Of a DNA stretch of 64,000 nt, positions 1 to 56,891 are shown piece by piece. The stretch covers positions 5,815 to 69,814 of the forward strand of contig JBIOJB010000001.1 in the NCBI GenBank assembly GCA_044450465.1. The letters run 5' to 3'. Positions within the stretch are counted from its first letter, which is position 1. Each line of letters begins with the position of its first letter. The notes beneath the pieces are model-generated. The model was not told the DNA's origin. It did not search any database and was given only the letters and a program-made list of their open reading frames with translations. The position numbers and the translations under genes are program-made. This stretch comes from Candidatus Dormibacterales bacterium (GTDB taxonomy: Bacteria; Chloroflexota; Dormibacteria; Dormibacterales; Dormibacteraceae).

Positions 1-978
1 CTGTCCTTCGCCCTCTCCGCGGCATCCCAGCTTGCCATTGCGTTCACGCCAAGCGTGGGCCCACTTTTCATCTGGCAGGTGGTTGGGGGCCTCGCCGGCG
101 GGGCGCAGCAGGCAGCCCTCTTCAGCGCGGTGACCGAATCAGTGCCCGGCGGACGTCTCGGGCGAGCCATGGGCTGGCTCACCTTCTCCATGCAGACCGG
201 CTTTTTCGTCGGACCGACCATCGCGGGCCTGGCCCTCCGGTGGATCGATGTGCGGACAGACATCGCGGTGACGACGGCGATCCTGGTCGTGACGATCCCG
301 GGCGTGATCGCGGCCAGCGGCACGCGCCAGAGCTCCGGCCACGGGTTCTCGCTCAGGGGACCCCTGCGGTCGCTTGTCACTCAACGCTCGTTCGTTCCCG
401 TGACGATCGGCCTGGTGGCTGCGACACTGACCTGGGGAACACTGGGCGCTTTCCTTCCGGTGTTCGCGAAAGAATCGCTCGGTCTTCCGAGCTCGCAGAT
501 CGGTTACCTGCTCGCGCTTCAGGCCGTCGCCAACGGCCTGTCTCGTCCGCCGAGCGGCCGGATGGTCGATCGCGCCCGCCACCGCTGGCCGATCGTCTTC
601 ACCGGCGTGATGGGCTGGTCCATCGCCTCGGTCGTGCTCGTGCACGTCTCTGGATTCGTCGGTCCGGCTGCCGTGCTGGTGCTCGGAACCCCGTTCATGG
701 CGGCCGCCTTTGTCGCGATGGGCGTGGTCTTCGGAGACCTTTCAGCCGCGTCGACGCGCGGCGTGACGATGGGGATGTGCGGAACGATCCTTTTCCTGGG
801 ACTCTCCGCCGGACCGCTGATCTTCGGGCCGGTGGTGCAGAGCTCCGGCTACGCAGCCGGCTTCACGGCGTGCGCCGTGACCGCGGCTTTCCTTGCGGTC
901 GTGATGGCGGCGTTCCACGCGGAGCCATTAAGGCGCCGCGGCGCGGTGCCCCTGCCGCCTGCTGCGCCAGGAACTTGA
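1..978 (+). CDS. MFS transporter, C-terminal part (5' end outside window)
   Basis: Frame 1 is open from base 1 to the stop at 976-978. The translation is a series of hydrophobic helices with MFS-like loops. The ORF track entry 55..978 starts at an internal GTG. Confidence 0.7.
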   Translation: MSFALSAASQLAIAFTPSVGPLFIWQVVGGLAGGAQQAALFSAVTESVPGGRLGRAMGWLTFSMQTGFFVGPTIAGLALRWIDVRTDIAVTTAILVVTIPGVIAASGTRQSSGHGFSLRGPLRSLVTQRSFVPVTIGLVAATLTWGTLGAFLPVFAKESLGLPSSQIGYLLALQAVANGLSRPPSGRMVDRARHRWPIVFTGVMGWSIASVVLVHVSGFVGPAAVLVLGTPFMAAAFVAMGVVFGDLSAASTRGVTMGMCGTILFLGLSAGPLIFGPVVQSSGYAAGFTACAVTAAFLAVVMAAFHAEPLRRRGAVPLPPAAPGT

Positions 979-1456
979 CGTATTCGTCCAGCACTGCGTG
1001 GTGGCTGGGGAAAGCAAGGGCGGGCAGAGCATCGACTGGAAAAACTCCGACTTCGAGCATTTCGTCTCCGGCCTGCGGCGAGGACCCGGCCGCGAGGCGG
1101 CCTCGATACGCGATTCCGACCATGCTCGACGCGTCGGTCTTTGCGATGTGGAAGACACCCAGCAGAGCGGTCAGCTCGACCTCGGCTCGAATCTCCTCCA
1201 GGCATTCGCGGACGGCGGCGGCTGCGGGATCCTCATCTGCGTTGACGAAACCCCCGGGAAGACACCAAAGGCCGTAGCCGGGCTCGATGGCCCGCCGGCC
1301 GAGTACGACTCCCTCACCGCTTTCGACGACGACCGCCGTCGCGACCTTCGGGTCGTGCCACAGAATGAAGCTGTCACGAGGGCAGCCTTCCACCTCGCGC
1401 CCGTCCACCATCCTCGGCACGAGCTCGGTTCCGCAATTGACGCAGAAATGAGCCAC
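863..1456 (-). CDS. NUDIX hydrolase with N-terminal zinc ribbon
   Basis: Nudix box GGFVNADEDPAAAAVRECLEEIRAE. N-terminal MAHFCVNCG CxxC motif. The 3' end overlaps the convergent MFS gene by 116 nt. Confidence 0.8.
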   Translation of the reverse strand: MAHFCVNCGTELVPRMVDGREVEGCPRDSFILWHDPKVATAVVVESGEGVVLGRRAIEPGYGLWCLPGGFVNADEDPAAAAVRECLEEIRAEVELTALLGVFHIAKTDASSMVGIAYRGRLAAGSSPQAGDEMLEVGVFPVDALPALAFPSHHAVLDEYVKFLAQQAAGAPRRGALMAPRGTPPSRPQGKPRSRRTP

Positions 1457-1477: not shown

Positions 1478-2611
1478 CTACGCAGGCTTCCGCTCCGACA
1501 CAGGCTTCAGCTCGGCGATCCGGACCTGGTTCCGGCCGCTCTGCTTGGCGGAGTAAAGCGCCTGGTCGGCCTTCTCGAGCAGGGTGGTGAACATGTCCGG
1601 GTCGTTGGTTGCCGCGACGCCGATGCTGATCGTGAACCTCACGCCGCCCGCAAAGGTGGTCTCCTCAACCCTGGAGCGAATGCGCTCGGCCAGCGCTTGG
1701 GCGCCGGCGACCTCGGTCTCGTGCATGACGATCGCGAACTCTTCCCCACCGTACCTTGCGCAAACGTCGGATTCCCTGACCTCGGCGTTGAATACGGCGG
1801 CCAGCTCGGCGAGCACGGCGTCTCCGTTCAGGTGGCCGAACGTGTCGTTGACCCACTTGAACCGGTCGAGGTCGAGCATCAGGAAGGCGATCCACTCGTG
1901 ATGACGGCGTGCACGCTGCATCGTCTGCAGGAATCTCTGGGCCAGCGCGCGTCGGTTCGGCAGCCTGGTCAGCTCGTCGGTCAGCGCGTTGTCCTCGTGG
2001 GCCTTGAACAGCTGGGCGTGGCTAATGGCGATGGCCGTTTGAGACGCGACACCGTTGAGCAGATCCTTCTGGTCATCGGTCAGCTCGCGCCACGCGCTCA
2101 AGTAGAGCTCCATAGCTCCCACGAGATGGGCGGAGTGATGGATCGGAACCACGAGCGCATAGGGCGGGTGGCTGCCGTCCTCCAGAGCGGGCGACGACTT
2201 CGAGTCGAGCCTCACCACAAGAGGACGCATCGCGACGACCGCGGATCGCACCGGGTCCTCGTCCAGTGGTCGGGTGGATCCGCGCGCACGCTCCTTGATC
2301 TTGTACCAGGCCTCTCGGTGCATATCGACCGCGCCCGGCTTCACGAGGTACATGGCGCCGGCCACCGCGCCCATGATCTCGCCGGCCTGGGTGAGGGCCA
2401 CGTCGAGGACCTCGGTCAGGGCGAGCTTGGAGTTGACCGCCAGCGCCATCTGCAGCAACAGGCCTTCACGCGCCCTGGCGCCGCTTTCTTCCTCCAGTGC
2501 TGCCGACAGCTCTCGCGCGGTACCGCGAAGGCGCATCAGAGCAAAGGTGAGGAGCAGCAACGCCACCACGACCAGGGCGGATGTGATCAGCAGTACGGCG
2601 TACGGGTCCAA
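1478..2611 (-). CDS. Diguanylate cyclase (TM helix, GAF-like sensor, GGDEF domain)
   Basis: N-terminal hydrophobic helix. C-terminal GGDEF domain with GGEEF active site and an RESD I-site five residues upstream (RESDVCARYGGEEF). Confidence 0.85.
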   Translation of the reverse strand: MDPYAVLLITSALVVVALLLLTFALMRLRGTARELSAALEEESGARAREGLLLQMALAVNSKLALTEVLDVALTQAGEIMGAVAGAMYLVKPGAVDMHREAWYKIKERARGSTRPLDEDPVRSAVVAMRPLVVRLDSKSSPALEDGSHPPYALVVPIHHSAHLVGAMELYLSAWRELTDDQKDLLNGVASQTAIAISHAQLFKAHEDNALTDELTRLPNRRALAQRFLQTMQRARRHHEWIAFLMLDLDRFKWVNDTFGHLNGDAVLAELAAVFNAEVRESDVCARYGGEEFAIVMHETEVAGAQALAERIRSRVEETTFAGGVRFTISIGVAATNDPDMFTTLLEKADQALYSAKQSGRNQVRIAELKPVSERKPA

Positions 2612-8644: not shown

Positions 8645-9316
8645 TCAGGGGATCTGCGGAGGGGCCGCCGGCTGTGCCCTTGTCTCGCGCTCACGGGCGA
8701 TGCGCTGGGCTCGGCCCTGCAGCCAGACCTCACGGATGCGCTGGAGGGCGGTCACGTTTGTCACGAGGGCAAGCAGGAACACGATGGCGTACAGCCACGC
8801 GCCGCCGAAGATCAGCCCGACCACGATCGCGACCACCCGCTCGGGTCGGGCGAATAATCCCGACTCGCACGTGAAGCCGAGGCTCTGCGCCCGGGCGCGG
8901 ACGTAGCTGACCAGGAACGAACCGGCGAGTGCGGCCAGCGTGGCGAGCACGAGCCAGCGCTGCATCGAGCCGCCCACCGAGACGAAATAGGTCGCGAGCC
9001 CCAGGTAGATGGCGCCTTCCGAATACCGGTCGAGCGTCGAGTCCAGAAACGCGCCGTACGGGTAGCTCGCGTGGGTTGTGCGGGCGAGGGCGCCGTCCAG
9101 GATGTCGCAGGTGCCGGCGACGACAAGCACCACGCCCGCGGTGAGCAGATGGCCGAATGCGATCAGGCCCGCCGCCAGGAACGTCAGCAGCAGACCGACC
9201 ACCGAAACCTGATTGGGCGTGAGCGGCACGCGCCCGATCGTCGACATCAAGCCTTCGGCGCGTCGCCGGACCCAGGCTTCAAACCGCGTTGTGAACATTT
9301 CGAACCCCTCTTGCAT
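8645..9316 (-). CDS. CDP-alcohol phosphatidyltransferase (phosphatidylinositol-phosphate synthase-like)
   Basis: Perfect DG(x2)AR(x8)G(x3)D(x3)D motif in DILDGALARTTHASYPYGAFLDSTLD. Multi-TM protein. It sits next to pimA, acyltransferases and ino1. Confidence 0.85.
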   Translation of the reverse strand: MQEGFEMFTTRFEAWVRRRAEGLMSTIGRVPLTPNQVSVVGLLLTFLAAGLIAFGHLLTAGVVLVVAGTCDILDGALARTTHASYPYGAFLDSTLDRYSEGAIYLGLATYFVSVGGSMQRWLVLATLAALAGSFLVSYVRARAQSLGFTCESGLFARPERVVAIVVGLIFGGAWLYAIVFLLALVTNVTALQRIREVWLQGRAQRIARERETRAQPAAPPQIP

Positions 9317-10448
9317 TTCCGGCCTGCGTCGCGGCTTCCTCCCGCGCTTCCTCGTAGACCTCGACGATCTCCGACGCGACCCGGTCCCAGGAGTACCGAT
9401 TGGCCCGCTCGTGTGCCTTCGCGCCGAGGCGCCGCCTCAATTCGGCATCCCTGGCGAGGATGACCAGCGCGGACCCAAGCTCGCGCCAGCGCTTGGGTTG
9501 CACGGCGATGCTGTCGCTTCCAGGCTCGAGCACGGACATGTAGCCCGGGACCTCGGTGGCCACCACTGGCAGCCCCGAGGCCATGGCCTCCAGCAGAACG
9601 ATCCCAAAGCTCTCCGCACCCGTGGCGGGGGCGCAGAAGATGTCTGCGCTCGCGAAATAGCGAGGCTTGACGGACTCAGGAACGAAACCGGCGAGCACAA
9701 CATTGCGCACTCGGTGCCTTCCGATCCAGTTCTCGACGTTGCTGCGAAGCGGGCCGTGGCCGACGATGATCAGCCGTGTGCGGGGCTCGCGTTCCTGCAG
9801 GTATCGAAAGGCCCGCAGGAGGTCGCCGAGTCCTTTGCGCTTCTCCAACCGGCCGACGAAAAGGATGTTGACGAACTCGTCTCGAAGGTGACGGATGGGC
9901 GACAGGCCAGGTTTGTAGACATCGAGATCGATGCCGTTGGGTACTACTCGGATCGGGAACTTGGGGAAGTAGCGGCTCACGAATGCGCGGGCAGGCTCGC
10001 TCACGGCGACCGCACGGTGGAGGCGCCTGAAGTAGGGCTTGAGGAGCGAGCGGCCGTAGTAGTAGCCGAGATTGGAGCGTGCGAAAGCGTGGAAGGTGCC
10101 AACGTTGGCGGCGGTCGACATGCGCAGGAGCGTCATGGGCAGCGCGGGCATGAGCGGTTCGTGGAAGTGAAGGACGTCGAAGTGCTCGCTGCCGATGATC
10201 CCCCTCACATGGTTGCTCAGGTGAAAGCTCAGTCCGATGCGCGCGACCGAGTCGTTCACCGGCACCGCGATGGGCCGGCCAATCCGGTAGAAACGGGCGG
10301 CGTCAAACTCGAGGTCCTTCTTGCTCGACGGCGCGAAGATGCGAGTGTCGTGGCCTAGGCGCTGCAGCTGGACGGCGAGGTGCCGCACGTGGTCATTCAC
10401 GCCGCCCGGCGAGGCGAAGTCATACGGCGACACCAGCCCGACCCTCAT
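9279..10448 (-). CDS. pimA: GT4 phosphatidylinositol alpha-mannosyltransferase-like glycosyltransferase
   Basis: Start re-set to ATG 10448 (MRVGLVSPYDFASPGGVNDHVRHLA), which closely resembles the mycobacterial PimA N-terminus. The ORF-track 512-aa version carries a 123-aa Arg/Ser-rich artefactual extension. Confidence 0.85.
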   Translation of the reverse strand: MRVGLVSPYDFASPGGVNDHVRHLAVQLQRLGHDTRIFAPSSKKDLEFDAARFYRIGRPIAVPVNDSVARIGLSFHLSNHVRGIIGSEHFDVLHFHEPLMPALPMTLLRMSTAANVGTFHAFARSNLGYYYGRSLLKPYFRRLHRAVAVSEPARAFVSRYFPKFPIRVVPNGIDLDVYKPGLSPIRHLRDEFVNILFVGRLEKRKGLGDLLRAFRYLQEREPRTRLIIVGHGPLRSNVENWIGRHRVRNVVLAGFVPESVKPRYFASADIFCAPATGAESFGIVLLEAMASGLPVVATEVPGYMSVLEPGSDSIAVQPKRWRELGSALVILARDAELRRRLGAKAHERANRYSWDRVASEIVEVYEEAREEAATQAGNARGVRNVHNAV

Positions 10449-10594
10449 AGGCGTGGGGGGCCCGACACCCTGCGTCGCGGGTAGGCCGGATTCATTCCGG
10501 CCGTCACCCCGGCGTGAACCCTCCAACCGCCTCCCATTCGCGGCCAGGAGAGGGGGGTTCCGTGGGGGGATCCTGATACCCCCGCGCCCGTCAC
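10445..10594 (-). repeat. Palindromic junction element copy A: 50-codon bridging mini-ORF between the acyltransferase and pimA
   Basis: GTG 10594-10592 overlaps the upstream TGA. TGA 10447-10445 overlaps the pimA ATG. Hairpins lie at 10564-10583 (GGGGGGATC/GATACCCCC) and 10484-10502 (GGCCGGA/TCCGGCC). The core is homologous to 56788-56826. Confidence 0.8.
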
Positions 10595-11457
10595 TTTGAG
10601 CCAGGCCAGACCCGGTGCGGCACGTGCCACTGCTCCGGGTGCTGTGAGATGAACCGCTCGATGTGCCCGAGGAGCTCCTGGGTGGTGCGCACCTGGTCGG
10701 CCTTCGAATCGCCCGTCGACTTGGGGATGACAAGCGGCGCGCCCTCGGCCAGGTATGTGTCGTCCGGCATCCTGTAAACGCAGACGGGAAAGAGGGGCGC
10801 TCCAGTGCGCAACGCAATGGCCGCGGGCCCCAGAGGAATGGGCGCCAGCTTTCCGAAAAAAGGCATCAGGTGACCGGTGCCGGTGATATCCCGATCGATC
10901 GCCGTAATAACAATCTCGTCGTCGCGAAGAGCCTGGAGCACCTTGCGGATACCGCCGTGGTCCAAGGTCAGGACGCTGATCCCAAGCCTGGCCCTGGTAT
11001 CGCGATACCACTCGAAAAGAGGTCTCGGCTCCACCTCCTCGGCAAAGACGCTGACCGGCGCCTGCGTCGCCGCCCAGATCGCCGCCGCCACCTCGTAGGA
11101 GCCCATGTGGCACGTCACGGCCATGACTCCCCTGTGCATCGCCTGCCCTTCGGCGAGGTACTCGAGGCCCTTCACCTTGAGAAGCGGCCTCATCTGTTCC
11201 ACGCGCATGCGCGGGAGGAGCATCAGGTCCGCATAGGCCTTGGCGTGGTTGTGAAAGTTGATCCAGGCCACGTGACGAAGAGAACGGTCGTCGAGGTCCG
11301 GCCGTGCCACCCTCAGGTTGAACTCCAGGCGTGGTCGAGCCAGCGGCGAGAACCAGTACGCGAGCCGCGCGGCCACCAGCGCTAGCGCGTAGGCCCAACT
11401 TCGAGGCAGCCTCACGGTTAGCGATTGAATCGCGGCGAACGCGCGCCAACGCCACAT
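10591..11457 (-). CDS. LpxL/HtrB-family lipid acyltransferase (PatA-like), copy 1
   Basis: Lauroyl-acyltransferase-family layout with HMGSYE (HxxxxE variant of the HxxxxD catalytic motif). Located in the PIM-type cluster. Confidence 0.75.
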   Translation of the reverse strand: MWRWRAFAAIQSLTVRLPRSWAYALALVAARLAYWFSPLARPRLEFNLRVARPDLDDRSLRHVAWINFHNHAKAYADLMLLPRMRVEQMRPLLKVKGLEYLAEGQAMHRGVMAVTCHMGSYEVAAAIWAATQAPVSVFAEEVEPRPLFEWYRDTRARLGISVLTLDHGGIRKVLQALRDDEIVITAIDRDITGTGHLMPFFGKLAPIPLGPAAIALRTGAPLFPVCVYRMPDDTYLAEGAPLVIPKSTGDSKADQVRTTQELLGHIERFISQHPEQWHVPHRVWPGSK

Positions 11458-12321
11458 TCAGATGACGCGCCACTCTAGCCACCCAGTCACCTTTGCTCAA
11501 CTTTGAACATGGGTCTGAAGGCGTACCACTGGTTGGGCCGCTCCCGAATGTAGCCCTCGAAGCGATGGACCACCTGCTGCATCAAGGTCTCCTTCGTATG
11601 GCCCTCGAGGGAAAGGCCTGGATCCACGTGGATGTGGTGGCGGCCAAAGGCCGGCGAGTACTGCCCGACGGTCAACAGCGCGGCCCCAGTCTTCAAGGCC
11701 AACGCCGCCGGACCCGATGGAACCACTGCGCGGCGGCCGAAAAAGTCGACCTCGACACCAGGCCCGTGCTCGAGGTCGCAGACCAGCGCGACGACTCGGT
11801 TCGCTCGCAGCGCGTCGGTGAGCGTCCGGACCGTCGAACGCCCTATGAAGATCACCTCGACCCCAATTCGCTGGCGCGTTCGCACCACGGCTTCGTTCAA
11901 TCCTGGAGGAAAGCGATCCGCCACGGCGACCACGTCGTAGCCCAGAGCCGCCGCGTACAAACCCGACGTGTCCCACGAGCCCATGTGCGGAAGGGCGGCG
12001 ATGACTCCACGACCGCGGGCAAGCGCCGCATCAACATGCTCCCGGCCCTCCACCGTGGCGCGCTGGAGGACCTCCTCTTTCGTGAGGTCACCAATCAGGA
12101 GAAACTCCATGAGCATCCGGCCATAGTTCTGGAAAGCCTGCCTCGCCACCCGGTGGACGGCGGGATCGCCGGGCTCCCGGCCCATGGCGGCGGCGTAGTT
12201 GTCCAGCGCATTCCTGCGCTGGGCACGGCTGAGCCAGAACCAGGCCGTGCCCCCGGGCGAGGCCGCGGCGTGGCTAAGGCGCGTCGGGAGGAACCGAAGC
12301 GCTCGGGCGCCCCCGAAGTAG

Positions 12322-13487
<1,166 letters not shown>

Positions 13488-13491
<4 letters not shown>

Positions 13492-13811
13492 GCCCCAATC
13501 TCCTCGCGAACTTTCACGCGTCCAGTAATTCCCAGCATCTGATCGAGCCGCTCGCGCTCGCGCGCGATGTTTTCGACGTCGAGCGAGCAGTAGACCTGCC
13601 GCCCCTCCCGTCTCGTCTTGATCACGCCCCCAACGCGGAGCATCCGGAGGTGCCACGAGATCCGAGGCTGGCTCATGCGCAGGTGCGCCGCCAGGTCGTT
13701 CACGTTCACCTCACCCATCTTCCCCAGCCGCTCCAGGATGCGTAGACGCGTGGGGTTGGCGAGGGCCAGGTAGTGGTCCGGAAGCTCATGTCGCGGGTTC
13801 TGCAGAAACAT
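13488..13811 (-). CDS. ArsR/SmtB-family transcriptional regulator
   Basis: Winged-HTH signature [12 protein letters not shown]...[22 protein letters not shown]. 107 aa. Translationally coupled to ino1. Confidence 0.85.
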
Positions 13812-13854: not shown

Positions 13855-15375
13855 GTGTATGCGCGACGAAAAGTAGCCGTCATGATTCACCGGATGCCGC
13901 GCCGGCTAGTGCTGAAGCTGATGCTCGGAATGACGAGCGGCCTGATCGCCGCCGGATTCTCCGTGACCTCGGCTTTCAGCGCAAACGGACTGACGTTGAC
14001 TCTGAATCCGACGCATGGCCTGGCCGGTGCGACGGTGACGGCGACCGCGACCTACGCGCCGCCCCCGACCGCAGGATGCCCGGTCGGCACATTTGTCCGG
14101 TTTACGTGGGGATCGCCCGCCAAGGCGCTACCGGATGGGAAATTCGACGCATCGTGTAAAGCAACCATCAGCTTCCCGCCGCCAGATACGGCCACCGGTT
14201 CCTACCCCGTGACCGCGACTTGGACGCAAGCCCCCACCGTCACGGATACGCAGAACTACACGATCGATCCACCACCGCCGCCGAGCCCGTCACCAAAACC
14301 CGTTCCCACTCCGACTCCTACCCCGTCTCCGAGCCCGATCCCGACGCCGTCACCCACATGCAGCACCGAGGGCCCCGCGCACGGCTGCGTGCCGGTCAAC
14401 TGCGCCCACCTGACGGCAGCCGTCCTTCCGCTCGGGGGCGGTGGCGGCGTGCCGCCGGTCTTGCTGCTGATCGTCGTGGTTCCAGTTGGAGCGCTGGCGT
14501 GGCGCCACCGGCGGCTTGCCAAACTGGCCGGCCCGATGCTGCTTCTGATGGTGGCGACGAGCTGCACGCTCCACACCTCGTCCGCTGCACCGACCCCGTC
14601 GACAGCACCCGCGGCTGCGCACTCCATCGTCGGTTTCGAGTCGACACCAGACTGCCGCGGCTACTGGATGGTCTCGAACTACGGTGGCATCTTCCCCTTC
14701 GGCAGCGCCACGGGCCATGGCAGCATGGGCGCGACAAAGCTCAACAAGCCGGTCGTGGGCATGGAGTCGACCCCCGACGGTGGCGGCTACTGGCTCGTGG
14801 CCAGTGACGGAAGCATCTTCCCATTCGGCGACGCTAGTGGCTTTGGCAGCACCGGAGCGATCGGGCTCACCAAGCCCATTGTGGCCATGGAGGACACGCC
14901 GGACGGCGGCGGTTACTGGCTGGTCGTCGCCGACGGTGGCGTGTTCCCATTCGGAGACGCCGGCGGGTACGGGAGCACGGGCGCCATCAAGTTGAACCAG
15001 CCCATCGTGGACATCGAGGCGACCCCGGACGGCCACGGTTACTGGCTCGTCGCGGCGGATGGCGGGATCTTCCCGTTCGGTGACGCCCTCGGCTTCGGCA
15101 GCACCGGAGGAATTCACCTCAGCAAACCCATAGTGGACATGGAGTCGACTCCCGACGGCGGCGGCTACTGGCTCGTCGGCGCGGACGGCGGAATTTACCC
15201 CTTCGGCGACGCCCTGGGTTATGGCAGCACAGGTGCTGTTTCCTTGAGCAGCCCGATCGTGGGCATGGAGGACACTCCGGACGGGCACGGCTACTGGCTC
15301 TTCGCCGCTGATGGCAGCATCCACCCGTTCGGCGATGCCCCTGGCTACGGATCTCTAGGCGGAGTGCCCTTCTAA
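13855..15375 (+). CDS. Surface protein: signal peptide, Ig-like domain, Pro/Thr/Ser linker, two hydrophobic segments, six GYWL/FPFGD repeats
   Basis: Signal-like MPRRLVLKLMLGMTSGLIAAGFSVTSAFSA (alternative ATG starts at 13882 and 13894). PTPSPS linker. Six ~40-aa repeats (TPDGGGYWLVxxDGGIFPFGDAxGxGS) cover residues 258-506. Confidence 0.7.
   Translation: MYARRKVAVMIHRMPRRLVLKLMLGMTSGLIAAGFSVTSAFSANGLTLTLNPTHGLAGATVTATATYAPPPTAGCPVGTFVRFTWGSPAKALPDGKFDASCKATISFPPPDTATGSYPVTATWTQAPTVTDTQNYTIDPPPPPSPSPKPVPTPTPTPSPSPIPTPSPTCSTEGPAHGCVPVNCAHLTAAVLPLGGGGGVPPVLLLIVVVPVGALAWRHRRLAKLAGPMLLLMVATSCTLHTSSAAPTPSTAPAAAHSIVGFESTPDCRGYWMVSNYGGIFPFGSATGHGSMGATKLNKPVVGMESTPDGGGYWLVASDGSIFPFGDASGFGSTGAIGLTKPIVAMEDTPDGGGYWLVVADGGVFPFGDAGGYGSTGAIKLNQPIVDIEATPDGHGYWLVAADGGIFPFGDALGFGSTGGIHLSKPIVDMESTPDGGGYWLVGADGGIYPFGDALGYGSTGAVSLSSPIVGMEDTPDGHGYWLFAADGSIHPFGDAPGYGSLGGVPF
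14626..15372 (+). repeat. Six tandem ~120-nt coding repeats (40-aa GYWL/FPFGD units)
   Basis: The units start IVGFESTPDCRGYW, VVGMESTPDGGGYW, IVAMEDTPDGGGYW, IVDIEATPDGHGYW, IVDMESTPDGGGYW and IVGMEDTPDGHGYW. They are in frame within the 13855..15375 CDS. Confidence 0.85.
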
Positions 15376-31487: not shown

Positions 31488-31701
31488 CGCCGCGCATCCG
31501 GTCCCTTTGGCGCGCCAATCCAGCGGTGCCGGCTAGGCCAAGAAGGCACGGGCGGCTCAATCTCCCCGATGCCCGGCCCCCGGACCGGCCTGACTCATGA
31601 GTTTGGTAGCCGAGGTTGCCTTAGGCCGGATTGACTCGGGCAGAAACCCAGGCGTGCCACTGTCCAAACGACTGCGACCAGGTGTTACTCGGTGGGGGCA
31701 C

Positions 31702-31727
31702 CACGGGAGAGGCCTGCCTCCCCCGTG
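31702..31727 (-). terminator. 11-bp GC-rich hairpin immediately after the stop of the 31731..32291 gene
   Basis: The minus strand reads CACGGGGGAGG-CAGG-CCTCTCCCGTG (one G-U pair). There is no U-tract on the minus strand. On the plus strand the same hairpin is followed by CTTTT. Confidence 0.45.
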
Positions 31728-31730
31728 CTT

Positions 31731-32291
31731 TTAGAGCCTTTCCAGGACCAGGGTGCGTTTGGACGCGTATTCGTGGTCGGAGAGCAGGCCGTCGCGATGC
31801 AGTTTCGTGAGCATCTCCATCTCCTCGAGCACGTCCAGCAGCGGTGCCATCGTGCGTCGGGCCAGGTATGCCTCCGAGGCGCCGCCCGCCTCCTCGCCGC
31901 GCGCGTCGAACTCGCGGATGAAGAACAGCGCTTTCACGGCCGAGAACGGAATCCCCAGCTTTCGCACCGGGCTGTCCGAGTGCTCGGCGTGCAGATGCAG
32001 CACGACTCCGTATCGATGCCTTTCCAACGTTCCATCGAGGTGGCCGCGAAGAACCTCACCGTCCAGGAAGCGGATGGCCACTTTTCGCGTCGGCGTTTCC
32101 GACGCAAGATCCGGATCGCGTGGCAACTCAACCCATTTGACCGCGGTCAACGGGATCCAGGCGGTCTCGTTGTTCTCGAGGCCGTCGGTGTCGTCCACCT
32201 CGACCAGGAAGTCGGGTTCGTCGAAATCAAGATCGCGAGCGTTGCCTTCCAGGGTCTCGTCATCGAAGAAGCGGACGACTACTTTGGCCAT
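31731..32291 (-). CDS. Hypothetical protein with C-terminal SHOCT-like motif
   Basis: Two similar N-terminal beta-rich segments (VVRFFDDETLEG / VAIRFLDGEVLRG). C-terminal LLDVLEEMEMLTKLHRDGLLSDHEYASKRTLVLERL resembles SHOCT. Confidence 0.55.
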   Translation of the reverse strand: MAKVVVRFFDDETLEGNARDLDFDEPDFLVEVDDTDGLENNETAWIPLTAVKWVELPRDPDLASETPTRKVAIRFLDGEVLRGHLDGTLERHRYGVVLHLHAEHSDSPVRKLGIPFSAVKALFFIREFDARGEEAGGASEAYLARRTMAPLLDVLEEMEMLTKLHRDGLLSDHEYASKRTLVLERL

Positions 32292-54274: not shown

Positions 54275-55251
54275 GCGGTGATCGAGACCCGATCGGCGCC
54301 GGCGGCATGGCGCACGACCTCGCCCACCACCGCGGCGCCCGAGGGCACGTCTTTGGGATCAACCGCGAGAACCATGCCGAGCCCCATGTTGAAGGTGGCG
54401 TACATCTCGTCGTCGGCGATGCGCCCTCGCCGCCGGATCAGCTCGAAGATGGGCGGGGTACGCCACGTCCCGCGTCGAAATCTCGCGCCCAGGCCCTCCG
54501 GCAGCATTCGTGGAACGTTGCCGGTGATCCCGCCGCCCGTCACGTGCGCGGCTCCCTTCCACGTGATGCGGTTCAGGTCTTCGAGATACGAGCGGTGAGG
54601 GTCGAGCAGCACCTCGCCAAGCGGGCGGCCGAGCTCCGTGAAGACTCGCGTGAGGGGCACATCCTCGAACACCTTGCGCGCCAACGAGAACCCGTTGGTG
54701 TGGAGGCCGCTCGACGGCAGTCCCACAAGCACGTCCCCAACTTTGATCCGGCTCGGGTCGCCAGGACGCTCGACCAGGCCGACGATGAACCCTGCGAGGT
54801 CGTAATCGCCGAGTGCGTAGACGCCCGGCATCTCGGCCGTCTCGCCGCCGAGCAGGGCGCACCCGGCCTCCCGGCACGCCGATGTCATCCCTTCCATCAG
54901 CTGGGTGAAGACGTCGGGGTCGAGACGGCCGGTCGCGAAATAATCCAGGAAGAACAGCGGGCGCGCTCCCGCGGTGGCGATGTCGTTCACCGAGTGGTTG
55001 ACGAGATCGACCCCGATATCGTGATGCGAGCCGGCGGCGATGGCGACCTTGATCTTGGTGCCCACGCCGTCTGCGCTGGCTGCCAGGTGGCCACCGCCGG
55101 GTAGGGCGTAGAGGCCGGCGAACGGGCCGACGCCCACCGCGACCTCGCTACCATGCGTTGCTGCAATGAGCGGTTTGAGGCGTTCAAGCGCGCGCTCGTA
55201 GGCGGCTATGTCCACGCCGGCCGCGGCGTAGGAGGGACTCTCGCCGCTCAC
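54271..55251 (-). CDS. purM: Phosphoribosylformylglycinamidine cyclo-ligase (AIR synthetase)
   Basis: Start re-set to GTG 55251 (GTGA overlap with the purF stop). SYAAAGVDIAAYE N-terminus and GLHTNGFSL motif. Confidence 0.9.
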   Translation of the reverse strand: MSGESPSYAAAGVDIAAYERALERLKPLIAATHGSEVAVGVGPFAGLYALPGGGHLAASADGVGTKIKVAIAAGSHHDIGVDLVNHSVNDIATAGARPLFFLDYFATGRLDPDVFTQLMEGMTSACREAGCALLGGETAEMPGVYALGDYDLAGFIVGLVERPGDPSRIKVGDVLVGLPSSGLHTNGFSLARKVFEDVPLTRVFTELGRPLGEVLLDPHRSYLEDLNRITWKGAAHVTGGGITGNVPRMLPEGLGARFRRGTWRTPPIFELIRRRGRIADDEMYATFNMGLGMVLAVDPKDVPSGAAVVGEVVRHAAGADRVSITA

Positions 55252-56708
55252 GCCTTGGCTAGCTGTGGCGACGGAGGCTCGGCGACCGGGACGCCTTCCG
55301 GCTGCGGCTCGAACTGCATCTTGTCCATCACGAGCTGCTGCGGAACGGGCACCGGGTACGAGCCGTCGAAACAGGCGCGACAGAACTCCTGAGCCGTGCC
55401 CCGTCCGATGGCCCTCATCAGACCCGGTATCGAAAGATAGTGCAGGCTGTCGGCGCCAAGGTGAGCGCGAACCTCCTCGACGGTGCGGCCCGAAGCGATC
55501 AGCTCTTTCGTCGAGCCGATGTCGACTCCCATGAAGCACGGATAGCGCATGGGCGGGCTCGAGATGCGCATGTGGATCTCTCGGGCGCCCGCGGCGCGCA
55601 GTCGCTCGATGATCCGCCCTGACGTGGTGCCGCGCACGATCGAATCGTCGACGGCGATGATCCGCTTGCCCCTGATCGACCGCGGAAGGGGATTGAGCTT
55701 CAGCATCACTCCCGCCTCGCGCAGCGATTGGTCGGGCTGGATGAAGGTGCGGTTGATGTAACGGCTCTTCATCAGGGCCTCGCGAAACGGAATGCCGGAC
55801 GCCTCGGCGTAGCCGATGGCGGCGGGGGTGCCCGAGTCCGGGAACGCGACCACCATGTCAGCCTCGACAGGCGCTTCCTTGGCGAGCTCGTGGCCCATTC
55901 GGATCCGGGCGTCTTCGAGCTCGCAGTTTTTGAGGATCGAGTCCGGCCGGGCGAAATAGATGAACTCGAAGACGCACATGGCGTGCTTGTTCGAGGTCAT
56001 GAAGGTCAGGCTGTGAACGCCGTGCTCGTCCATCACCACCATCTCCCCCGGCTGGACCTCCCGGACGAAGTTCGCGCGCACCGTGTCCAGCGCGCAGGTC
56101 TCCGAGGCGATGACATGCGCCGGCTGGCCTGGGAGGGGTATGAAGCCGATGCACAGCGGCCGGAACCCGAACGGATCGCGAAGCGCGATCAGCTGGGTCG
56201 GCGTGATGATCCCGCACGAATAGGCGCCAACGACACGGGCGAAGGTGCGGCGGATGACGTCCTCCCACGTGCGGCCGTGGGTGTGCTCGATGAGCCTGGC
56301 CATGACCTCGGTGTCGAGGGCGGTGTCGAAGGTCGCGCCCTCGTCCTTCAGCTGGGCGCGAAGAGCCTCTGCGTTCAACAGGTTTCCGTTGTGAGCGATC
56401 GCGCCGGGTCCCAGGGTGGGATGGTGAAAGGGGAGCGGGTGCGCGTTCTCGGCCCGGCTGGCGCCGGTGGTCGAGTAGCGCGTGTGACCCAGCGCAAGGA
56501 TCGAGCCCTCGCCCAGGTCCCTGATCTGATCGGGCGAGAAGACGTGGGCGACGAGGCCCATGTCGCGGTGCACGCGCACGGAAGTCCCATCCGAGACCGC
56601 GATGCCGGCCGACTCCTGACCCCGGTGCTGCAGCGCGAAAAGGCCGAAGTAGGTGAGGTTGGCGACATCCACACCCTGCTTGGAGCAGATGCCGAAAACC
56701 CCACACAA
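55248..56708 (-). CDS. purF: Amidophosphoribosyltransferase
   Basis: The TTG start is followed directly by the Ntn nucleophile Cys (MCGVFGICSK). The PRPP motif is present (IIAVDDSIVRGTT). 486 aa. Confidence 0.92.
   Translation of the reverse strand: MCGVFGICSKQGVDVANLTYFGLFALQHRGQESAGIAVSDGTSVRVHRDMGLVAHVFSPDQIRDLGEGSILALGHTRYSTTGASRAENAHPLPFHHPTLGPGAIAHNGNLLNAEALRAQLKDEGATFDTALDTEVMARLIEHTHGRTWEDVIRRTFARVVGAYSCGIITPTQLIALRDPFGFRPLCIGFIPLPGQPAHVIASETCALDTVRANFVREVQPGEMVVMDEHGVHSLTFMTSNKHAMCVFEFIYFARPDSILKNCELEDARIRMGHELAKEAPVEADMVVAFPDSGTPAAIGYAEASGIPFREALMKSRYINRTFIQPDQSLREAGVMLKLNPLPRSIRGKRIIAVDDSIVRGTTSGRIIERLRAAGAREIHMRISSPPMRYPCFMGVDIGSTKELIASGRTVEEVRAHLGADSLHYLSIPGLMRAIGRGTAQEFCRACFDGSYPVPVPQQLVMDKMQFEPQPEGVPVAEPPSPQLAKA
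56668..56707 (-). repeat. Direct repeat copy 1 (purF codons 1-13, functional copy)
   Basis: The 40-nt sequence tccacaccctgcttggagcagatgccgaaaaccccacaca is identical to 56829-56868. Confidence 0.95.
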
Positions 56709-56828
56709 GGTCAGTCGATGCCCCTGGAGTCGCCCGGTTCACCCGGGCGACCCCCCGGACTCACTTTCTGTGTCGACGACGCAAACCAGAGGGGGGTCCG
56801 TGGGGGGATCCTGATCCCCCCGTGCCTT
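56708..56828 (-). repeat. 121-nt hairpin-rich insert between the two purF-start repeats (palindromic element copy B)
   Basis: Hairpins GGGGGGATC/GATCCCCCC (56802-56821) and TCGCCCGG/CCGGGCGA (56730-56750). The core at 56788-56826 is about 38/41 identical to 10549-10588. Confidence 0.85.
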
Positions 56829-56868
56829 TCCACACCCTGCTTGGAGCAGATGCCGAAAACCCCACACA
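56829..56868 (-). repeat. Direct repeat copy 2 (decoy purF start, heads a 52-aa mini-ORF 56869..56711)
   Basis: Identical 40-mer. It keeps GTG-TGT (Met-Cys) 22 nt downstream of the purL stop but reads into the insert and stops at TGA 56713-56711. Confidence 0.9.
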
Positions 56869-56891
56869 CGTCTAGCCGGACACCTTGTGCA

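Follow-up and report, generated by a model that had tools for sequence, protein, structure and literature searches.

The minus strand of the 64,000-nt stretch analysed here (the window; contig JBIOJB010000001.1 of a Candidatus Dormibacterales bacterium) raises the question of why the spacer between a Lip_A_acyltrans gene and a pimA-like glycosyltransferase gene is one uninterrupted open reading frame (ORF) that starts on the stop codon of the first gene and ends on the start codon of the second, and why its core recurs in an insert at the 5' end of purF. Our comparisons indicate that the spacer probably represents one unit of a repeat from Candidatus Dormibacterota that is about 120 nt long, non-coding and non-autonomous, and that at gene starts a throw-away ORF across this repeat would hand ribosomes on to the gene behind it. 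We found a dispersed family with two conserved hairpins, a preferred position relative to genes, insertion with duplication of the target and, at the pimA junction, conservation of the phase of the ORF.

The acyltransferase-pimA spacer contains a copy of a repeated element

The Lip_A_acyltrans gene (10591-11457, minus strand) ends with the TGA at 10593-10591, and the GT4/PimA-like gene (9279-10448, minus strand) begins with the ATG at 10448-10446, according to the ORF list and Pfam. The N-terminus encoded there, MRVGLVSPYDF, aligns with orthologues. A preliminary description of this DNA had pointed out that the 142 nt between the two genes (10449-10590) form a single open frame overlapping both of them, and this proved correct base for base. 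The bridging ORF (10445-10594, minus strand; 49 codons plus stop) starts with GTG at 10594-10592 on the acyltransferase TGA (GTGA) and ends with TGA at 10447-10445 on the pimA ATG (ATGA). Taken alone, the open frame is weak evidence, because the same frame extends open for 351 codons back into the acyltransferase gene (ORF list), and such open off-frames are usual in DNA of 66% G+C.

The core that the spacer was said to share with the purF insert was also found. Positions 10553-10588 match 56791-56826 without gaps at 92% over 36 nt, and a 24-mer of this core occurs solely at these two places, with 0.00 matches expected from 100 shuffles. A second stem-loop is present in both copies (10484-10502 and about 56729-56751), with a TTCA-containing loop on the plus strand followed by CCCCGG. 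As described earlier, a 1-nt indel (GGAACCCCCC vs GGACCCCCC) changes the frame between the copies, and the peptide is not conserved (GVSGSPHGTPL in the spacer, GGIRIPPRTPL in the purF insert).

A covariance model (R1) aligned both copies over their entire length. Copy 1 fills the spacer (10460-10593, minus strand; 105.7 bits, E 1e-24; nhmmer E 1e-23), with hairpin 1, CGCGGGGGTATC-AG-GATCCCCCCACG, at 10561-10586 and hairpin 2, GGCCGGA-ATGAA-TCCGGCC, at 10484-10502. Copy 2 is the 121-nt insert in the 5' end of purF (56708-56828, minus strand; 61.1 bits). A diverged copy 3, overlooked in the preliminary description, lies upstream of pdxS (31600-31734, minus strand; 37.5 bits, E 5.8e-8); its beginning coincides with the TAA stop of a DUF6982 gene (Pfam), and its hairpin 1 apex is altered on both arms (GGGGGAGGC-AG-GCCTCTCCC). 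All three copies lie on the minus strand, in sense to the neighbouring genes, and with three copies in 64 kb the window is rich in the element. Directly after copy 3, positions 31560-31600 (minus strand) hold an additional G+C-rich inverted repeat, GGCCGGTCCGGGGGCCGGGC, and about 150 nt of apparently non-coding DNA follow before the conserved part of pdxS.

A family of structured repeats in Candidatus Dormibacterota

Metagenome contigs were scanned with the hairpin 1 motif, which matched at least 120 soil metagenome contigs of Candidatus Dormibacterota. A hidden Markov model (HMM) run on 867 kb of fetched loci (numbered with the prefix L) returned 153 hits in 127 arrays at 47 distinct sites. 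The copies thus extend beyond the first two, and their placement, described below, is not random. PurF and PimA comparisons identified the host of the element as Candidatus Dormibacterota, and the repeat is specific to this group as far as sampled. One PimA with 100% identity is encoded on an 83.7-kb contig of a Dormibacterales MAG at NCBI. A scan of reference genomes, whose pattern lacked one base of the 3' arm of hairpin 1 and missed window-type copies, returned two copies from Dormibacterota metagenome-assembled genomes (MAGs). A scan of viral contigs gave 0 element hits. The window had no match in Rfam 15 at gathering thresholds, with sub-threshold noise (E up to 1) in three element-bearing loci, and a literature search returned nothing relevant to this repeat. 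No extra copies outside the anchor copies were detected in 354 kb, which suggests tens of copies per genome at most. No autonomous parent, with a gene between hairpin 1 and hairpin 2, was found among the hits; each partial hit adjoined a full copy or the end of a contig.

The unit is 118-135 nt long, typically about 120 nt, and is conserved from the stop codon and AAAGGCGC to ...GCTCCAC or ...GCCACGC. From 5' to 3' it consists of an A-rich leader abutting the stop codon, hairpin 1 (GCGCGGGGGGATC-AG-GATCCCCCCGCG), AACCCCCC, a variable middle of about 45 nt, hairpin 2 (GGCCGGA-ATGAA-TCCGGCC or covarying versions) and a short tail. The hairpins occupy positions 8-33 and 90-108 of the 132 in the model, near both ends. 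The selection on nucleic-acid structure proposed earlier is borne out by compensatory changes in both of them. Across 65 copies, helix 1 was 98.5% paired, with two pairs changed on both sides, and helix 2 was 99.6% paired, with changes on both sides in five of its seven pairs. For both helices together, 99% of the cells were paired and 7 of 15 pairs were double-changed (e.g. G-C 36 vs C-G 29); none of 500 shuffles equalled this covariation, and slid controls were 37-60% paired.

Several subfamilies could be distinguished in the middle segment and hairpin 2, and modules can be duplicated singly, as hairpin 1 or the 3' module is repeated alone in L007, L086, L121 and L005. Tandem arrays of two to four units, in direct orientation and with a period of 118-127 nt, make up 22 of the 127 arrays. 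The two most populated sites are the gdh-epimerase and acyltransferase-pimA junctions, and the former holds one to four tandem units depending on the contig. The apex of hairpin 1 is more diverse than the search pattern could reach. In L024 (8883-9014, minus strand) and L048 (2189-2320, minus strand), a second hairpin-1-like module with a compensated apex, GCGCGGGGAAGAC-TTGCG-GGTCTCCCCCGCGG AACCCCC, directly follows the standard hairpin 1. The hairpin 2 loop carries a shared insert of about 35 nt (..TTGAAAGTGCGCCCTGCGCGCGCCCGGCG..) at three different sites (L031, about 959-1090, minus strand; L117, about 2019-2150, plus strand; L079, about 1215-1346, minus strand). These copies either have a second small element nested in them or form a long-loop subfamily. 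A tRNA-like reading of hairpin 2 and the tail (GGAATGAATCC...CTTCAGC-T-CCA) was dropped, as its basis was visual alone and Rfam gave no tRNA hit; a mutual-information scan for a 5' acceptor strand matching the tRNA-like tail was swamped by subfamily structure.

The element has moved, with duplication of its target at purF

The preliminary description had raised the possibility of a mobile element. Comparison of the window with syntenic junctions of relatives shows filled and empty sites both at purF and at pimA, and the element has therefore moved. In relatives with 88-90% identical PurF, purL runs directly into purF (..CAATAATGTGTGGGG.. and ..CCTAGCGATGTGCGGC..), and a 40-nt segment of purF is present in one copy. 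The window has the element at this site, L123, L124, L126 and L129 do not, and the covariance model found no element in eight of nine PurF-relative loci (L123-L129 except L127). In the window, this segment flanks the insert as a perfect direct repeat. Its upstream copy (56829-56868, minus strand) runs from base 2 of the old purF GTG start to codon 14 and is 100% identical to the downstream copy (56668-56707, minus strand), which was located by a repeat search. The uninterrupted purL-purF junction and the single segment in the relatives therefore show that the window carries a 121-nt insertion together with a 40-nt target duplication.

The downstream copy, together with T56708, makes the working purF start, TTG at 56708-56706, and the purF ORF (55248-56708, minus strand) encodes MCGVFGI.... 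A bridging ORF of 52 codons (56711-56869, minus strand) opens at the old purF GTG, crosses the element and closes with a TGA that lies 2 nt ahead of the new TTG. Of the stop/start coupling earlier attributed to both copies, the overlaps are present at the spacer, but the bridging ORF at purF takes its start from the duplicated old start codon of that gene instead of the purL stop, and does not overlap the new TTG. Neither the 40-nt direct repeat nor the use of the old start had been noticed before.

Other copies have perfect flanking repeats of 11, 12, 14, 15 and 18 nt, and older copies have flanking duplications of 56, 73 and 81 nt; in most copies, no flanking duplication was detected. The repeat period was 2 mod 3 in five of the six copies with a duplication, and the chance of at least five is about 0.02. 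In four duplicated copies, the ORF from the old start ends -2 to +4 nt from the new start (TGAccTTG at purF, ATGA in L017 and L025, and TGATG in L103). The element has no terminal inverted repeats, its 5' end (AAAGGCGCGGGG...) and its 3' end (...GCTCCAC or ...GCCACGC) not being inverted copies, and no transposase gene was seen beside any copy in the 867 kb.

The phase of the bridging ORF is conserved at pimA junctions

We compared 17 distinct filled acyltransferase-pimA junctions, anchored on the acyltransferase C-terminal motif PHRIW. Thirteen of them have an ORF of 45-49 codons that starts with ATG, GTG or TTG on the upstream TGA (NTGA) and ends with TGA on the pimA ATG or GTG, and their spacers measure 130, 133 or 142 nt, all 1 mod 3. 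The peptides follow at least four frame paths (RGGIRIPPRAPL...VTAGVNPA; ...NPPRLAA...GDGRNESGL; AWGDQDPPTDPPL...; and GAGVSGSPHGTPL... in the window). Internal +1/-1 indels shift the peptide frame in three lineages, and the spacer phase is unchanged. Several frame paths in one phase mean that frame-shifting indels were compensated repeatedly; the sequences at this junction thus conserve the phase of the ORF and not its peptide. The earlier claim that translational coupling is preserved agrees with these 13 junctions, where the peptide frame changes, but does not hold family-wide.

Of the 17 filled junctions, 12 have A before the upstream TGA, 4 have G and one has T; none has C. C was found there solely in the empty junction of L137, and the genome has a high third-position G+C. 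Besides the filled state of at least 130 nt, the pimA junction occurs with spacers of 1 nt (L137), 7 nt (L130-132) and 19 nt (L133-135), which are likewise 1 mod 3. The 7- and 19-nt spacers hold the mini-ORFs MTAQ* and MKKREESS* with equivalent overlaps, and the 19-nt spacer looks like a deletion remnant of the leader AAAAGCGCG. No element was found by the covariance model in L130-135; L137 was judged from its 1-nt spacer, which is too short for a copy. L042 has two elements, and two ORFs in succession lead across them, joined through GTGA and ATGA.

The near-empty junction of L130-L132 (1530-1546) reads AATGA-CCGCGC-AATGA, a 5-nt direct repeat around 6 nt, which could be an excision footprint or a native junction. 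Public records of orthologous PimA have annotated lengths of 384, 386-392 and 403-407 aa. They vary because the start of the longer calls is placed within the junction or upstream of it, where open frames around the element or its remnant mislead gene callers.

A proposed course of insertion and ribosome transfer

These observations can be combined as follows. The element would spread at low copy number, without terminal inverted repeats and with variable target duplications (11-81 nt) in its youngest copies. Copies would persist at gene 3' ends in sense orientation, where they would be carried on the mRNA without stopping it. Upon insertion into the first codons of a gene, the duplication would regenerate the start codon downstream of the element, and the old start, or an NTG overlapping the upstream stop, would open a throw-away ORF. 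Such an ORF can cross the element because two of the three element frames are without stops. It would end on, or a few bases from, the regenerated start, and ribosomes would be handed on by termination-reinitiation, melting the hairpins in passing. Selection would then keep the phase of the bridging ORF. We infer that the bridging ORF is translated and that expression of pimA and purF depends on it. The GTGA...ATGA ends are best read as a relic of a duplicated ancestral stop/start junction that was later kept by selection.

Position at gene ends and a possible role in RNA

At 31 sites the gene on the 5' flank shares the strand of the element, and at 4 it lies on the other strand. Between co-directional genes, the element is in sense at 11 sites and antisense at 2; 9-14 sites lie between convergent genes, and none of the 47 lies between divergent genes. 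The new family of operon-junction elements suggested earlier is real in being dispersed over many contigs and sites, but the sites between convergent genes show that it is not confined to operon junctions. Of the 83 copies whose upstream gene lies on the same strand, about 70 have its stop ending 3 nt or less from model position 1. TAA accounts for 59% of the stops adjoining the element vs 13% in the background (4.6-fold); the upstream triplet can be TAA, TGA or TAG, and leaders are 0 to 11 nt long. Their median content is 4 A in 8 nt vs 1-2 in the background, and 19% of the leaders reach 5 A in 8.

No sense-strand terminator was called at the three window copies, where hairpin 1 leads into GGAACCCCCC with no immediate U tract. 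The window copies thus lack the hairpin with immediate U tract on the transcribed strand that defines an intrinsic terminator. Considered as a terminator, hairpin 1 was rejected on the sense strand and qualifies weakly on the antisense strand. In L015, L030, L088 and L117, a separate canonical terminator is located 3' of the element. The element there stands between the stop codon and the terminator and is therefore transcribed with the gene. The lack of a sense terminator, together with these downstream terminators, leads to the conclusion that the element rides in 3' untranslated regions (UTRs) and intercistronic spacers. In one Dormibacterota MAG (L002, 4940-5020), the element lies between the secA stop and the start of prfB, a gene with a programmed +1 frameshift site, CTTTGAC.

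Given this distribution, it is conceivable, and we propose it tentatively, that the element acts mainly as a functional RNA module in the 3' UTR or between cistrons, with hairpins that guard the upstream mRNA against 3' exonucleases or mark a processing site, as in REP sequences. The strand bias, the absence from divergent intergenic regions, the abutment on the stop codon, the position ahead of canonical terminators and the covariation of both hairpins are all consistent with such a role. However, a transposase that recognises a hairpin in single-stranded DNA would be expected to lead to covariation just as well, and the paired strand cannot be told because G-U and A-C mismatches are balanced (6 vs 7). 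The missing sense-strand terminator signature also speaks against it. A part of this proposal is that hairpin 1 in antisense, with the U-rich complement of the leader, would act as a terminator, which would account for the sense-only tolerance inside operons. One idea is that the weak antisense U tract supplied by the complement of the A-rich leader could explain why copies in operons survive only in sense. A terminator-like antisense call at copy 3 and the A-rich median of the leader agree with this, but fewer than one leader in five reaches 5 A in 8.

Selection on the bridging ORF or by-product of insertion

We also considered that the ORFs are by-products: the NTGA...ATGA ends would be left by target duplication, the frame would be open because the element is G+C-rich and stop-poor, and pimA and purF would use their own ribosome-binding sites. 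This explanation is rather doubtful, although several observations favour it and at the same time weigh against ribosome transfer through a selected ORF. The off-frame of the window is open for 351 codons in any case, and composition alone leaves two of the three element frames open, since the triplets in the conserved GTGAC and AATGAAT fall into a single frame. GGGG or GGAG stands about 8-10 nt before most pimA starts and could serve as a ribosome-binding site of their own, and the ORF misses the downstream start in L055, L136 and L032. The 13 of 17 junctions are not 13 independent trials because pimA junctions are related by descent, and about five independent frame paths were counted. Most family copies have TAA, TAG or TGA upstream with no overlapping start codon and no bridging ORF, and coupling therefore cannot explain the persistence of the family. 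As for the insertion itself, most copies are without a flanking duplication, and the duplications might come from a secondary process. The purF insert is tied to the family solely by its hairpin 1 module and overall architecture, and no relatives of its 3' two-thirds were present among the 867 kb of loci.

However, mere by-products would not be expected to keep spacers of 130, 133 and 142 nt always at 1 mod 3 despite +1/-1 indels in three lineages, nor to share this phase with spacers of 1, 7 and 19 nt. A start codon precedes the stop in 17 of 17 filled junctions, 13 of them with A or T at a third position in a genome of high third-position G+C. The two-step chain of overlapping ORFs in L042 and the bias of the duplication periods toward 2 mod 3 point in the same direction. 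We therefore prefer selection on the phase of the bridging ORF over a by-product of insertion.

Relation to known mobile elements

REP and BIME sequences, which are associated with RAYT, are imperfect palindromes of 21-65 nt with a 5' GTAG, occurring in hundreds of copies, often as inverted pairs, with a cognate RAYT gene. The element resembles them in having G+C-rich palindromic hairpins, in lying in transcribed extragenic DNA at the 3' ends of genes and rarely between divergent genes, in its mosaic modular build and in a possible mRNA-stabilising role. However, hairpin 1 is a 26-nt palindrome preceded by AAAGGCGC, not GTAG; the copy number is low (no extra copy in 354 kb), arrays are direct, and young copies have long target duplications. 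No RAYT gene was seen beside the copies, although no search was aimed at RAYT in these genomes.

It appears quite unlikely that the element is a REP or IS200/IS605-type palindromic element mobilised by a single-strand HUH (Y1) transposase that would recognise the subterminal hairpins and insert the element 3' of a short A/T-rich target such as TAA, which in a 66% G+C genome would be found mostly at stop codons. Such an origin would fit the hairpins near both ends without terminal inverted repeats, as in IS200/IS605-derived elements, the strict orientation to the upstream stop with its enrichment in TAA, and the majority of copies without a flanking duplication. On the other hand, IS200/IS605-derived elements insert without target duplication on the 3' side of a tetra- or pentanucleotide that is fixed, and the 11-81 nt duplications of the young copies are not made by HUH transposition. 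TGA and TAG also serve as upstream triplets, the leader varies by up to 11 nt, the GTAG motif is missing, the arrays are direct, not inverted, and no transposase gene accompanies any copy in the 867 kb. The element likewise differs from miniature inverted-repeat transposable elements (MITEs) derived from DDE transposons, as it has no terminal inverted repeats and its duplications are not of a fixed short length. It is a small structured intergenic repeat without an Rfam match, and by these comparisons it is not a REP, a MITE or an IS200/IS605 derivative.

The preliminary description compared the locus with mycobacterial interspersed repetitive units (MIRUs), which are units of about 40-100 bp present in about 40-50 copies in Mycobacterium (Supply et al. 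1997, summarised in PMC3184786). The likeness is extensive. Both are small G+C-rich repeats in operon intercistronic spacers, carried on polycistronic mRNA, with filled and empty sites between relatives and with tandem arrays of variable copy number (here one to four units at gdh-epimerase), and tens of copies per genome are compatible with both. ORF ends that overlap the flanking stop and start, as in MIRUs, were found here at the pimA junction (13 of 17) and in the L042 chain. The comparison therefore stands for the architecture at pimA but fails on size, taxon and flanking repeats: the units measure 118-135 nt vs 40-100 bp, the hosts are Dormibacterota vs Mycobacterium, and the flanking repeats are 11-81 nt or undetectable vs tetranucleotides. 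Moreover, the overlapping ORF is here limited to copies on a gene start, whereas many copies lie between convergent genes. The element behaves like a MIRU without being one.

For IS1549 and IS1634 of the IS1634 family, target duplications that are long and differ in length (8-514 bp) have been described, with an unexplained mechanism (PMC2266710). The element shares this property, but those insertion sequences are 1.5-2 kb long with a DDE transposase and terminal inverted repeats, whereas it is 120 nt long without inverted termini. No transposase of this kind was found near the copies, although no search was aimed at one. Rickettsia palindromic elements, RUP, Correia and ERIC are small repeats that enter or extend ORFs (PMC3184786). 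They are likewise short and structured, with stop-poor frames read through in or beside coding sequence. In contrast to the present element, they resemble MITEs in their inverted termini and in duplications of a short, fixed kind, for instance TA. In our element, furthermore, the host gene is not fused to the repeat; the duplication regenerates the gene, and a separate bridging ORF precedes it.

An insertion mechanism new for small bacterial repeats, in which an element without inverted termini makes staggered duplications of 11-81 nt and, on hitting the 5' end of a gene, rebuilds the start codon and has expression restored by a bridging ORF driven from the old start, is an unlikely proposition. 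If true, insertion would be self-repairing, and a mobile element could sit inside essential operons (purL-purF, acyltransferase-pimA). The enzyme could then be a new kind of transposase, or the pathway one of reverse transcription or template switching.

It is highly implausible that the 50-codon ORF is a genuine gene for a small protein conserved at both the spacer and purF sites: the ORF has start and stop codons, and the peptide RGGIRIPPR(T/A)PL recurs in many copies, but this peptide is a mere translation of hairpin 1, the frame differs between lineages and between the window copies (GVSGSPHGTPL vs GGIRIPPRTPL; AWGDQDPPTDPPL; NPPRLAA...GDGRNESGL), and most copies follow a stop codon without a start.

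Other features of the window

The spacer belongs to a minus-strand cluster (8645-13656) with genes, in order, for inositol-1-phosphate synthase, two adjacent Lip_A_acyltrans paralogues, a GT4 PimA-like glycosyltransferase and a CDP-alcohol phosphatidyltransferase (Pfam). It corresponds to a phosphatidylinositol-mannoside-type pathway outside Actinobacteria and is kept in relatives. Positions 14638-15340 contain 5.6 tandem units of 126 nt each (42 codons; 72% matches), which are apparently coding, with a consensus encoding a ...TPDGGGYWLVAADGGIFPFGDA... type repeat.

Implications

With the element, a phylum represented solely by metagenomes gains a repeat family, together with a covariance model and 47 mapped sites. 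Its tandem arrays are possible strain markers for Dormibacterota, and gene callers misplace starts at element junctions, as seen for PimA. The variable-length duplications that regenerate gene starts suggest an unexplained insertion mechanism. Selection for translation across an element is an idea proposed earlier for MIRUs, where it is hard to test. The compensated frameshifts, the phase kept over spacers of 1-142 nt and the chained ORFs described here provide remarkably clean comparative evidence for selection on translation across a mobile element.

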